This document shows positions 47,669-56,151 of a DNA stretch of 64,000 nt, piece by piece (position 1 is the first letter of the stretch; every line of letters begins with the position of its first letter). The notes under the pieces were generated by a model. It worked only from the letters and a program-made list of their open reading frames with translations, was not told where the DNA came from and did not search any database. The stretch comes from Nitrospirota bacterium (lineage in GTDB: Bacteria > Nitrospirota > Thermodesulfovibrionia > Thermodesulfovibrionales > Dissulfurispiraceae), in the NCBI GenBank assembly GCA_963710375.1, contig CAVPZX010000002.1, forward strand, positions 1,008,326 through 1,072,325, read 5' to 3'. The position numbers and the translations under genes are program-made.

Positions 47669-48259
47669 ATGAAATCTGAATGTTCTATCCCATTTTCTTT
47701 ACTGCTTGGGGCCGGCCATTTTATCGCGGGACTTGCACTCTGCTTGTCCTTTCTTGCTGTTCCGGTTGTCTCGTATTCCGAAAGTGAACAGGCGGAGGAA
47801 TATGAAGTTAAGGCAGCTTTTCTATTTAATTTCGCGAGGCTTACTGAGTGGCCCGGCGACGCCTTCCGCTTGCATGATAAAAATTTTGAGATCTGCTTAG
47901 TGGGAGATGACCGCTTCGGAGGGATCCTCGATACGCTTTCGAGCCGGGCTATAGGCGGGAGGAGCGTGTCGATAAGAAGGATCACAGATTTCAGGGAGTC
48001 CTCTGCATGCAACCTTCTTTTTATATCCTCCTCAGAGGCGTATCGACTGCGCGACATAATCTCGTTTGTTAAAGAGAGACCCATTCTTACAGTCTCGAAC
48101 ATAAAGGGCTTTGAGAAGGAGGGTGGGATCATCGCCTTCTATTTAATGGACAACCGTGTGAGATTCAGGATCAACATAGACGCTGCAAGGAAGGCCAGAC
48201 TGAAGATAAGCTCGTATCTTCTTGAGGTTGCCGGTATTGCAAGGGATGGCGGAAAATGA
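47669..48259 (+). CDS. YfiR (DUF4154)-family periplasmic protein
   Basis: [47 protein letters not shown]. Confidence 0.9.
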
Positions 48260-50592
48260 CAATGAACAGGGCAAGCATAAAACGCAAACTGACGTCGATA
48301 AACCTCTTATCTACAGTCTTTCTCGTAATTCTGATGGGCCTTTCTGTAGCCATTGTCGAACTGGTCTACCAAAAAGCGGAATTGCTTGAGGACACTAAAT
48401 TGCAGGCTGCTGTTATTGCAAAAAACAGCATATCGTCTCTGCTGTTTATAGATCAGAAGAGGGCTGAGGACACACTCGCTTCTCTCAGGGGCAACATCGA
48501 TATCGAACATGCTGCTATTTATATGAGAGATGGCAGGATCTTAGGCACTTATGTACGTGAAGGCTTGAAAAGCTTATATTATCCGTTAAAACCGGAATCG
48601 GAAGAGTATGCCTTTGAAAAAAACCACCTTACAGTGTTTTATCCTGTAGTTTTCGACAATGAAACCATAGGGATGATATACGTTCGCGCAAGCTTAAAAA
48701 GGCTATATGCCCACATATTCAAGTTTATCCTCTTTCTCATTGTAATTTCTGTCTCGACAAGCGGAGTTGCCTTGCTCCTCCTGGGCAGGCTCCAGAAGGC
48801 GATCACGGGTCCGATTTCCCATTTGTCGAATGTCATGCTCACCGTTACTAATGAGAAGGATTATTCCATCAGGGCTTCGGTTGATTCAAAAGACGAGTTG
48901 GGGATGCTCGCCGGAGGTTTGAACGGGATGCTCGAAAGGATCGAAAAAGGGCAGCTGGAACTTGAGGAAAAAGTTGCCTCCAGAACAGCGACTCTAGAAC
49001 AGACCAATGAGCTGCTGAAGGAAGAGATCGCTGGACGCAAGCTTGTGGAAGAGTCGCTCAAGAAGGCAAAGGAGACTGCGGATTCGGCCAGCCGAGCCAA
49101 GACAGAATTCGTTGCAAACATCAGCCACGAGATAAGGACTCCCATGAACGCAATTATCGGTATGAGCGAACTGCTTATGGGCACCGAGCTAGGACCTGAG
49201 CAACGGGAATATGTCGAAGCTGTGAAACAGTCGGGAGATTCGCTCCTCGGCCTGATAAACGACATACTCGACCTCTCGAAAATTGAGGCCGGGAAATTGG
49301 AAATGGAGGAGATCGATTTTGACCTGCGCAGGGTTGTCTATCTTGCCGTCAACATGTTCTCGTCCCAGTTGATGCTTAAGGGGTTGGTGCTTCGAATCCA
49401 TATGGAGCAGGATGTGCCAGTGTTTCTGAAGGGAGACCCTCTGCGACTGCGACAGGTTCTTGTCAATCTGATCGGCAACGCGGTCAAGTTCACTGAGAAG
49501 GGCTCGGTGGCGTTGGAAGTACGCCGGCATGAGAGAGCAGAGCATGACCGTTTTATTACGCTTCATTTTTCGATAACGGACACCGGCATCGGCATTCCCG
49601 GAGATAAGATGGAGCGAATATTTGAGAGCTTTACCCAGGCGGATGGCTCGACAACCAGGAGGTATGGTGGAACCGGGCTGGGGCTGAATATTACCATGAA
49701 TATTGTAAACCTCATGAGCGGAGTAATATGGGTTGAGAGCGAAGCTGGAAAGGGGAGCATTTTCCATTTTACAGCGCGGTTCTCTCAGGGCAAGCTGGTC
49801 GAAGAGCTCAGACCCGGTGGGCCAATGTCGTTCTCAATCTCCGCTCCACTGAGAATTCTTCATGTGGAAGACAATGTTATGATCCGTAATTATGTGGCAG
49901 GCATGTTGGGGAAGTCATCGCATGAACTAAAATCGGTGAGCAACGGGAAAGAAGCGATAGAATTGCTGTCACAAGGAGATTTCGATCTTGTCTTGATGGA
50001 TATCCAGATGCCTGATATGGACGGTTTTGAGGCTGCGCGGATTATACGCGATCCCAACTCACCGGTTAAAAATCACGCGGTGCCGATAATCGCGACAACA
50101 GCATACGCGATGAAGGGAGACAGGGAACGCTGCCTCGAAAGCGGCATGAACGATTATATAGCAAAGCCTTTCAGCATAACTGAACTTTTCGCAAAGATCT
50201 CCCATCTGCCTACCATGCAGCACCCCACCTATCCTCCCCTTGCCGAGGAGAGGGGTGACGATGCCATTGATAGGGCGAGTCTGCACAGACTCTATGGCAG
50301 TAACGAGGTCCTTATTCGTAAAATATGCTCTGACTTTCTGATGAATGTTACGCCTGCCCGCCTGGATGAGATACGGGAATCTATAGTTGCCGGAGATTTC
50401 CATCGCGCCAATAGGCTCGCTCATTCCCTTAAGGGCGCAGCCGGGACTATTGGTGCCAAACCTCTGCAGGATAAGGCGCTCCTGGTCGAACTCGCGGCCG
50501 GACAGGGCGATATGGAACAGGCCGGTATTGCTTTTGGCAAACTCGAATATGAATTTAAGAGATTGTTAACTTTTTTGAGCAGAGAGGAGTAA
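48256..50592 (+). CDS. Hybrid sensor histidine kinase (periplasmic sensor-HAMP-HisKA-HATPase-REC-Hpt)
   Basis: [43 protein letters not shown]. Confidence 0.95.
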
Positions 50593-50593
50593 A

Positions 50594-54807: not shown

Positions 54808-54828
54808 GCGGGGGAAGAGTTCCCCCGC
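54808..54828 (+). terminator. Hairpin between precursor and maturase
   Basis: GCGGGGGAA-GAG-TTCCCCCGC followed by a weak T tract. Confidence 0.55.
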
Positions 54829-54849
54829 GATTCTTTGTGAGGAGTGCCC

Positions 54850-56151
54850 GTGCCCCTTTCAACATATTGCATCAGTTATCCATCGCCTGACAACCCTGAT
54901 TCACATATCTTGTTTCTGACTAAGAGCTCTGCCAAGGCCCTTGTCCCGTCCTCGCTTCTTTCGGCCATTGATCAGGAGACTATCCCTGAAGCTGAAAAGG
55001 CAGCCCTTCAGCGGCCCGGTTTTATCGTGGAGGATATAGAACAGGAGAGGACAGATATGGCGGGCTTTACGGAAAGAGTGAGCAGTCTTAGCAGGATTTT
55101 TTACGCAAAGTTGGTAATGAACCTGGACTGCAATCTCGCCTGCGCTTATTGTTTTGAAGGATCGAGGAAAGGCAGGCTTTATATGTCTTGTTCTACTGCG
55201 GATCTCTTTGTCGAGTTCGTCAAAGGCCGTCTGTCCCCTAACAAGAAAGAGATACGTGTCACCTTTTACGGCGGCGAACCTCTGCTCAATTCCAGACGCA
55301 TACTTTACATAGCTGCGCGTCTCAAGGATTTAGCCGAAGAAAAGGGCATCGACTTCGGCTTTTCGCTCGTCACCAACGGAACGCTGCTCACCAGGGCGAT
55401 TGTAGATCAGCTCAAGCCGTTAGGCCTCAGGACAGCAAGCGTGACACTTGACGGCCCCGGAGATATTCATGACAGATACAGGCCCTTCACTTCGGGAAAG
55501 GGCAGTTTCGCTAAAATACTTGCAAACATCGAGGCGGTCTGTGACGTGACCGGTATCCAAATAGGAGGCAATTATACCCGTGAGAACTTCCTTGAATTTC
55601 CCCGGCTCCTCGATTATTTGATGGAGAACGGCCTGACTCCTGAGCGGATCTCAGACATCAGGTTCGACCCGGTGACCGGAGAGAGCGATGAATTCGTGCT
55701 GCCGGATTTTCGGGAGGCCTGCCTCTCAATGGATGAGCCCTGGCTCAATGAGGCTTCCGTGTATTTGAGGGAGGAGATACTCCGGCGGGGTTACAGTGTT
55801 GGCAGGATAGTGCCGGTAGTATGCATGATGGAACAGCAGGACAACCTTGTTGTCAATTACAACGGAGATATCTATAAGTGTGCTGGCCTGATAGGCAGGA
55901 AAGAATTCTGTGTCGGCGATCTGAATACCGGGATAAAGGATTTCCATCTGTCTCATAACCTCGACAACTGGAAGAATGAAAGGTGCCTTTCTTGCGCTTA
56001 CCTGCCATTGTGCTTTGGAGGTTGCCGGTATTTGAAGCTTATACGCGACGGAGATATGAAAGGCGTTGACTGTAGAAAGAACTATTTAGACGCTGTCCTT
56101 GAGTCCCTCGTGCGACAGGATATCAAATATGCGAATCAGATTCTGAAATAA
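54850..56151 (+). CDS. Radical SAM/SPASM peptide maturase (geopeptide-maturase-like)
   Basis: CNLACAYC, FYGGEP; SPASM C...GDIYKC...CLSCAYLPLCFGGC...C; N-terminal extension compatible with a leader-binding element. Confidence 0.9.
   Translation: MPLSTYCISYPSPDNPDSHILFLTKSSAKALVPSSLLSAIDQETIPEAEKAALQRPGFIVEDIEQERTDMAGFTERVSSLSRIFYAKLVMNLDCNLACAYCFEGSRKGRLYMSCSTADLFVEFVKGRLSPNKKEIRVTFYGGEPLLNSRRILYIAARLKDLAEEKGIDFGFSLVTNGTLLTRAIVDQLKPLGLRTASVTLDGPGDIHDRYRPFTSGKGSFAKILANIEAVCDVTGIQIGGNYTRENFLEFPRLLDYLMENGLTPERISDIRFDPVTGESDEFVLPDFREACLSMDEPWLNEASVYLREEILRRGYSVGRIVPVVCMMEQQDNLVVNYNGDIYKCAGLIGRKEFCVGDLNTGIKDFHLSHNLDNWKNERCLSCAYLPLCFGGCRYLKLIRDGDMKGVDCRKNYLDAVLESLVRQDIKYANQILK

Follow-up and report, generated by a model that had tools for sequence, protein, structure and literature searches.

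Within a 64,000-nucleotide stretch of DNA from a Nitrospirota bacterium (the window; its source genome is called G000 here), seven co-oriented genes on the + strand at 47669-56151 include those for a YfiR-like periplasmic adaptor, a hybrid sensor kinase with a CHASE8 domain, a sigma54 activator, a TonB-dependent receptor, a 30-aa Cys-Cys precursor and a radical S-adenosylmethionine (SAM)/SPASM maturase of the 'geopeptide' family. We propose that they form a peptide-triggered relay across the envelope, from a helix of the receptor to YfiR, the CHASE8 kinase and the sigma54 activator, and put the chance that the whole proposal is right at about even. Its parts fare better singly: the receptor-helix-adaptor-kinase relay itself is probable, and the peptide is rather likely, a little less so than the relay, to be the ligand. 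The signal likely passes by docking of the receptor helix rather than by binding of the peptide to YfiR. The genes were identified from open reading frame (ORF) calls and Pfam and NCBIfam profile scans, which agree with the seven-gene set given in an earlier note on this DNA, including the precursor that is absent from the ORF list.

The receptor helix and the type of its partner

In the receptors compared, a short helix precedes a conserved V-x-S-A-T-R strand and comes in two types, EEE..FL.MYF.EEEL beside a PF04392 protein and L..MSIEELMNIEV beside YfiR. In the window receptor this segment (residues 53-74) lies at what we take, from BtuB-type receptors, to be the place of the TonB box. Leave-one-out profiles assigned all 26 other geopeptide receptors to the binding-protein type and all 19 receptors of YfiR modules to the YfiR type, with a low margin for three receptors across the two sets. 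The window receptor, a geopeptide receptor, scores 13.3 as YfiR-type and -12.8 as binding-protein-type. Its counterpart in the congener G178 is also YfiR-type by these profiles, and that in the congener G180 by eye. The resemblance of the receptor N-terminus to those of YfiR modules, remarked on in the earlier note, is therefore borne out by the profiles. Four rows were dropped from the helix and receptor comparison: L024_12 (a polysaccharide gene), and L049_2, L010_11 and L065_9 (a duplicate, a truncated row and an unrelated receptor).

By contrast with their helix, the window and G178 receptors have plug and barrel domains that sit in the geopeptide clade of the tree. A protein search found the YfiR helix in 15 of 110 scored relatives. 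The bodies of YfiR-helix receptors fall into three groups within the geopeptide clade, and a single clade was rejected by the approximately unbiased (AU) test (p-AU 0.027; 8 vs 17 rows, the group being defined by helix score and the rows picked after the first tree). G178 has a second receptor, identical in signal peptide and helix at the DNA level, that diverges right past the helix into a canonical YfiR-module body (44% identical to one such receptor) and would be the expected type of helix donor. Orphan receptors with the YfiR helix are L216:8492-10489 in G180, whose geopeptide body is 78% like the G178 geopeptide receptor, and L219:7403-9517 in G178, whose body is of the canonical YfiR-module kind.

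Run on 301 genomes of the phylum, a helix-segment profile matched 42. At 20 fresh loci outside the order, found with the helix-only profile, YfiR lies beside the receptor in 18 and a PF04392 protein in none; the remaining two are in genomes with YfiR at another locus. The helix profiles, this fresh-locus test and the complex prediction described below all agree with the coupling of YfiR to the geopeptide receptor suggested earlier. We regard this link as real and not a product of chance, judging from a helix of the partner's type that appears to have been swapped along with the partner. On the PF04392 side, the helix has a conserved aromatic M-Y-F (for example in L011 and L045). The PF04392 family binds aromatic amino acids (Trp, Tyr and Phe; PMC10443332), and the helix may occupy the pocket for them.

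Predicted contact between YfiR and the helix

The complex prediction paired residues 38-196 of YfiR and residues 41-83 of the receptor, each entered as an alignment, and scored 0.76 in three runs; the best of three controls reached 0.01. The mark applied to such scores is reached by 116 of 157 solved pairs vs 2 of 215 mismatched pairs, rates roughly valid here, where the alignments were our own. At least 90% of the contacts are common to the three runs, and the predicted local distance difference test (pLDDT) score of the partners is 66-67. The receptor interface is predicted to comprise L56, L57, M59, I61, I64 and M65-Q68, and that of YfiR a conserved E-Y-x-V-K-A-A-F helix, strand 162-165 and L184. 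The YfiR strand and L184 align to strand beta7 (158-161) and Val180 of Pseudomonas aeruginosa YfiR, a region in or next to the surface for YfiB and YfiN (PMC4655355). The P. aeruginosa protein alone represents YfiR homologues in the PDB, so recall of a similar complex is unlikely (checked by sequence only). Modelled by itself, the receptor has low confidence over its first 65 residues, as expected for a mobile periplasmic extension. The receptor N-terminal helix is predicted to bind YfiR.

Adaptors at geopeptide maturase loci

The maturase profile TIGR04280 matched 67 of the 317 genomes of the order Thermodesulfovibrionales, at 84 places, all of which were included (a single broken gene accounts for two of them). 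A receptor adjoins the maturase in 74 of these loci, a PF04392 protein lies within 4.5 kb in 66, YfiR is present in 3, and both adaptors occur together in none. Of the 43 loci that are fully flanked, 42 have the receptor, 38 have PF04392, 2 have YfiR and 3 have neither adaptor. The common gene order is receptor-peptide-maturase-PF04392-kinase-sigma54 activator. A set of 26 YfiR loci of the order includes none with a maturase hit; most are receptor-YfiR-kinase, and their receptors are only 23-25% identical to the window receptor over long alignments. Is YfiR then the general partner of geopeptide cassettes? It is not: the usual partner is the PF04392 protein, and in 7 of 7 other genomes holding both YfiR and a maturase (from a sample of 151 genomes) the two are on different contigs. 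The earlier note had named unlinked genes in related genomes as what would refute its circuit, and for YfiR in general this is the outcome. What is conserved, both in the 84-locus survey and in synteny with G180, is the tie of the cassette to some periplasmic adaptor and a kinase, often with a sigma54 activator.

The yfiR gene of the locus is the sole copy in G000. A second maturase locus of this genome (L035, G000:C2:528920-535820) has a receptor, peptide, maturase, PF04392 protein, kinase and two receiver proteins, and the presence of both adaptor types in one cell provides a built-in test of cross-specificity. At L067 and L068 a DUF4154 match without an ORF of its own apparently lies inside an 840-aa kinase ORF, a possible YfiR-kinase fusion.

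Exchange of the cassette between congeners

Between the window and the same locus of G180, identity is 78% for YfiR, 82% for the kinase, 84% for the activator and 89% for bioA vs 46% for the receptor and 55% for the maturase. The peptide tails differ, and the helix residues are still 78% identical. In G178 a 3' maturase remnant, 86% like the maturase of the window, lies behind that genome's own maturase. As judged from these alignments, the receptor, peptide and maturase have been replaced as a block between congeners.

In the 47 loci with a receptor, maturase and recovered peptide, every tail is distinct. Tail hydropathy tracks receptor identity (rho -0.34), and receptor identity correlates with maturase identity (rho 0.71), although kin are not independent in either comparison. 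The variable tails and the orphan receptor suggest strain-specific signals. A polymorphic cassette with an orphan receptor fits pherotypes with eavesdropping and also metallophore piracy. The G180 cassette (L089) is flanked by toxin-antitoxin-like and transposase-like ORFs, and ORFs like them flank that of G178.

Precursor and maturase

A short Cys-Cys peptide lies directly upstream of the maturase, as in the geopeptide system. Since 56 of the 84 maturase loci have such a peptide adjoining (recovered with a motif filter), its presence is more than chance. The maturase scores above the TIGR04280 cut-off and is a member of that family. Its CxxxCxxC cysteines C96, C100 and C103 and the SPASM cysteines C327, C346, C381, C384, C390, C394 and C410 are invariant in 46 rows. 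The model (pLDDT 94.7) has an N-terminus like a recognition element (RRE) of RiPPs (ribosomally made peptides that are modified post-translationally), with three strands and then helices at residues 9-73; no RRE profile matched. Whether judged by sequence or by fold, its closest solved relative is 5WGG/5WHY, an enzyme that forms thioethers, and the fold match to 5WHY is full-length. The maturase likely makes thioethers from the Cys-Cys pair.

Among the relatives, L012 has a tandem precursor pair with near-identical leaders and different tails. In the precursors of L025, L043/L119, L109 and L111, long Lys/Ala/Thr-rich histone-like leaders of up to ~90 aa replace the short leader. Directly 3' of the maturase, L095:6451-7014 encodes a 187-aa membrane protein resembling half a major facilitator superfamily (MFS) transporter; with 14 similar ORFs (15 in all, duplicates included) it is a candidate exporter.

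The activator and its output promoter

The activator of the window is split into two ORFs, a receiver at 50594-51046 and an AAA+/HTH part at 51084-52022, which was overlooked in the earlier note. An assembly error, an extra base at 50999, accounts for the split, because this base is missing from the contigs of five sequencing runs from three studies (X1, X2, X3, X7 and X8), its removal restores a single 475-aa frame, and the activator of G180 is one ORF. Eight runs were compared; X4, X5 and X6 had no listed piece spanning the site, and X1 may be the source sample. The five runs without the extra base rule out a true pseudogene.

In 22 of 29 loci the activator gene has a sigma54 site on its 3' side, compared with 1.4 in shuffles, 0 on the reverse strand and a genome background of 116/1448, and the site at 52225 is likely the output promoter of the activator. 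Activators often adjoin their targets, and the site is therefore a sign of a working regulator and not of autoinduction. A LuxR-type helix-turn-helix (HTH) protein lies behind the sigma54 site in 15 of the 29 loci and, once among them (L036:6093-6842), it is a full LuxR with an autoinducer-binding domain. In L089 the sigma54 site and the Cys-rich ORF are separated by an HD-domain gene. In the window, as in G180, the cassette is 3' of the site; read-through feedback is possible, in the YfiR gene order only, because the cassette comes next after the 79-aa ORF and no terminator-like hit lies between.

Proposed mechanism and its alternatives

In the relay that we propose, the Cys-Cys peptide is likely cross-linked by the radical SAM maturase, and the adjoining receptor likely recognises the matured peptide outside the cell. 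By analogy with FecA-type receptors and YfiBNR, ligand binding would free the TonB-box region, the freed helix would capture YfiR at the outer membrane, and this capture would de-repress the CHASE8 kinase. Phosphate would then reach the activator by way of His291-Asp582-His723 and so turn on the 52225 promoter; all three phospho-acceptor motifs are found in the kinase. TonB is encoded in G000 (two PF03544 matches above cut-off). The arrangement is modular: in most relatives a different helix goes with a PF04392 adaptor and a kinase of simpler build, and in this genus the N-terminus of a YfiR-module receptor was probably fused to geopeptide receptor bodies. A general scheme for anaerobic diderms may be drawn from this, in which pherotype-specific peptides meet a TonB receptor that sets specificity and a swappable 15-residue helix passes the signal through a YfiR-like or PF04392 adaptor to a histidine kinase; we offer it tentatively and think it somewhat more likely to fail than to hold.

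Several results weigh against the proposed relay. Peptide quorum sensing calls for a linked precursor, maturase, sensor kinase and regulator, and for signal polymorphism that co-varies with the receptor, and these the locus has; it also calls for a dedicated exporter or protease, and there is none among the genes of the locus, as the earlier note had already observed. The half-MFS protein of the relatives has no close match in G000 (best 22% with this query). The YfiR version is confined to three genomes of one genus (G000, G180 and G178), and no YfiR-type locus was among the matches listed for metagenomes (80 loci kept of 471). In G178 the YfiR ORF next to the cassette is short and the kinase is absent, and a YfiR-kinase-activator set is on another contig. 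The hydropathy of the tails follows the identity of the maturase just as it does that of the receptor, again among kin that are not independent. The sole NCBIfam match of the precursor, TIGR04229, is below cut-off (13 vs 30 bits); the precursors of 7 of 7 tested relatives are also below it (four at 12-16 bits, three with no hit), and the model therefore fits Nitrospirota poorly. Finally, the receptor has its own sigma70-like promoter, and strong sigma54 sites (11 of 13 positions) lie upstream of the receptor in 0 of 22 loci with an activator and 2 of 41 without one. General sigma54 feedback on the receptor promoter, which would have fitted the feedback in the earlier note, is rejected on this count; the conserved site follows the activator gene instead.

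Could the same relay serve a metallophore, the peptide being a metal carrier and the circuit reporting uptake of its metal complex rather than density or kin? We think this unlikely. In its favour, the Cys-Cys pair is invariant, metal chelates are the usual cargo of TonB receptors, siderophore piracy typically involves orphan receptors, and 17 of 63 receptors have an upstream Fur-like box (at least 13 of 19 positions; the window scores 13), against 7.4 in base shuffles, a weak control. However, the tails range from basic to aromatic and have no metal ligand in common beyond the two Cys, both of which a thioether-forming enzyme would likely use up. The neighbours include no recurrent inner-membrane ATP-binding cassette (ABC) permease, and the outputs are regulators such as LuxR-type proteins. 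Somewhat less probable again is a receptor-YfiR-kinase relay that is real but answers to another ligand, with the peptide staying in the cell or periplasm, where it modulates the system or acts otherwise. The replacement of receptor, peptide and maturase together, with flanks kept, and the receptor next to the maturase in all but one of the fully flanked loci argue against it. In its favour are the missing exporter or protease, TOL_0244, the receptor of the related module, which increases on long alkanes and is similar to OmpS, the alkane sensor of Alcanivorax (PMC6304351), and four loci with receptor, PF04392 protein and kinase and no maturase (L137, L164, L169 and L155); the receptor lineage is therefore not always tied to a peptide, a further point against the relay as we propose it.

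The earlier note had the imported peptide bind YfiR itself and the activator feed back on the cassette. We consider this version improbable: YfiR is kept where the tail of the peptide has nothing in common, the receptor helix is predicted to occupy the conserved face of YfiR, and receptors in general have no sigma54 site upstream. It would be consistent with the usual partner, PF04392, being a ligand-binding family (PMC10443332) and with the cassette lying 3' of the sigma54 site without an intervening terminator-like hit in the window and G180. That an unrelated two-component set merely stands next to a peptide cassette is very improbable in our estimate. An AT-rich gap of 690 bases separates the YfiR/kinase/activator half from the receptor/peptide/maturase half, and the unlinked YfiR and maturase of the seven other genomes point the same way; against them stand the helix type, the mutual exclusivity with PF04392, the synteny with G180 and the predicted complex.

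Comparison with known systems

The system of the window belongs to the TIGR04280 family; it is neither YfiBNR nor of the FecA type nor, by cut-offs, the TOL_0244 triad. It resembles the geopeptide system (TIGR04280/TIGR04229) in its maturase and in the Cys-Cys precursor directly upstream; it differs in a precursor below cut-off and in having YfiR where PF04392 is usual. With the TOL_0244/TOL_0243/kinase triad (NF053590-NF053592) it shares a YfiR-like protein above cut-off, a CHASE8 kinase near cut-off (181.3 bits for NF053592, below the cut-off of 194) and the same receptor helix. However, the receptor body is of another lineage (NF053590 78.9 vs 645 bits; 23-26% identical to receptors of that kind), the gene order differs and the window adds a RiPP cassette.

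In FecA-FecR-FecI the signal is handed inward by an N-terminal extension that lies in the periplasm beside the TonB box, and the window receptor likewise has an N-terminal extension by its TonB box. The window has no STN domain, anti-sigma factor (FecR) or extracytoplasmic function (ECF) sigma factor, the receptor being plug and barrel only; instead there are a helix of 15 residues, an adaptor that is soluble and a relay of the two-component kind. The likeness to YfiBNR of P. aeruginosa (PMC4655355) lies in the YfiR fold (PF13689 and PDB matches), the CHASE8 sensor and outer-membrane sequestration as the likely switch. Unlike YfiBNR, the partner of YfiR is a hybrid histidine kinase and not the diguanylate cyclase YfiN, the outer-membrane partner is a TonB receptor helix and not the lipoprotein YfiB, of which there is none among the genes of the locus (the search was confined to these), and most predicted contacts are on an N-terminal helix that does not align with P. 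aeruginosa YfiR. The system would work like a TonB-dependent transducer crossed with YfiBNR sequestration and fed by a RiPP.

The radical SAM-SPASM architecture, with an N-terminus that is RRE-like, resembles that of thioether-forming radical SAM RiPPs (the 5WGG/5WHY enzyme; SCIFF ranthipeptides). In Clostridium beijerinckii, ranthipeptide genes affect agr and sporulation genes (Chen 2020, cited in PMC8102284). The new element is that two named but unstudied modules, the geopeptide cassette and receptor-DUF4154-kinase, are joined in one locus, and the analysis supplies a concrete, testable mechanism for both. Gram-positive peptide quorum sensing of the agr type likewise has a polymorphic signal-receptor cassette; the host here is a diderm, no exporter is known, and specificity is apparently in the outer-membrane receptor, with a conserved kinase. 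That nature has exchanged a short helix along with the periplasmic partner it goes with provides strong genetic evidence of a docking code. Should the RiPP be the ligand, this would be strain-specific radical SAM peptide signalling in a Gram-negative anaerobe, and the general scheme, if true, would be an undescribed route from TonB receptors to two-component systems that explains the widespread receptor-DUF4154-kinase modules. Our literature search found no paper on a YfiR-like protein with a TonB-dependent receptor, on a Geobacter radical SAM/SPASM precursor with a TonB receptor, or on strain-specific radical SAM peptide signalling in a Gram-negative anaerobe, nor, with subscription journals mostly uncovered, on a 'geopeptide' maturase or precursor; the papers retrieved by accession do not concern this system.

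Features of the locus and its surroundings

Table 1. Features of the locus, in window coordinates
Feature	Position	Strand	Evidence
YfiR-like (DUF4154) periplasmic adaptor	47669..48259	+	PF13689 143.7 bits; NF053591 135 bits vs cut-off 125
Hybrid sensor kinase CHASE8-HAMP-HisKA-HATPase-REC-Hpt	48256..50592	+	Pfam; start overlaps yfiR stop
sigma54 activator REC-AAA+-HTH	50594..52022	+	Pfam/NCBIfam; split in window; G180 counterpart 84% identical
sigma54 (-24/-12) promoter-like site	52225..52241	+	10/13 consensus positions; same site in G180
79-aa Cys-rich ORF, first gene past the sigma54 site	52352..52591	+	Single copy; 56% homologue at same position in G180
sigma70-like promoter, directly upstream of receptor	52647..52676	+	10/12 positions; aligns with TTGACA...TATACT in G178
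TonB-dependent receptor, geopeptide-lineage plug and barrel	52714..54681	+	PF07715, PF00593; trees; model pLDDT 74
Predicted YfiR-type docking helix and next strand, receptor residues 53-74	52870..52935	+	Leave-one-out profiles, predicted interface, out-of-sample test
30-aa precursor MSQSIVILDEGLKMEDLSGTECCTGAEGRK	54697..54789	+	Conserved IxILDxG leader, Cys-Cys, variable 7-residue tail
Stem-loop in the precursor-maturase interval	54808..54828	+	z = -2.0; 7/200 shuffles equally good (modest)
Geopeptide radical SAM/SPASM maturase, RRE-like N-terminal domain	54844..56151	+	TIGR04280 581.7 bits vs cut-off 400

Pfam and NCBIfam scans gave nothing above cut-off for the 79-aa Cys-rich protein. The stem-loop likely raises precursor mRNA over maturase mRNA. 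No Rfam element, riboswitches included, was found at 47000-57000 at E up to 1. The co-oriented bioA (56189-57565) was excluded as a member of the system, not being recurrent beside maturases.

On the other side of yfiR, an apparent divergent (-) run of surface-polysaccharide or sugar-nucleotide genes occupies 41787-47485; the hits are weak and the last ORF alone was scanned. Downstream, at 56189-64000, there are bioA (+), a sigma factor on the (-) strand that is presumably RpoD-like, and what looks like an rRNA operon, 99% identical to G180 at 59233-60000.

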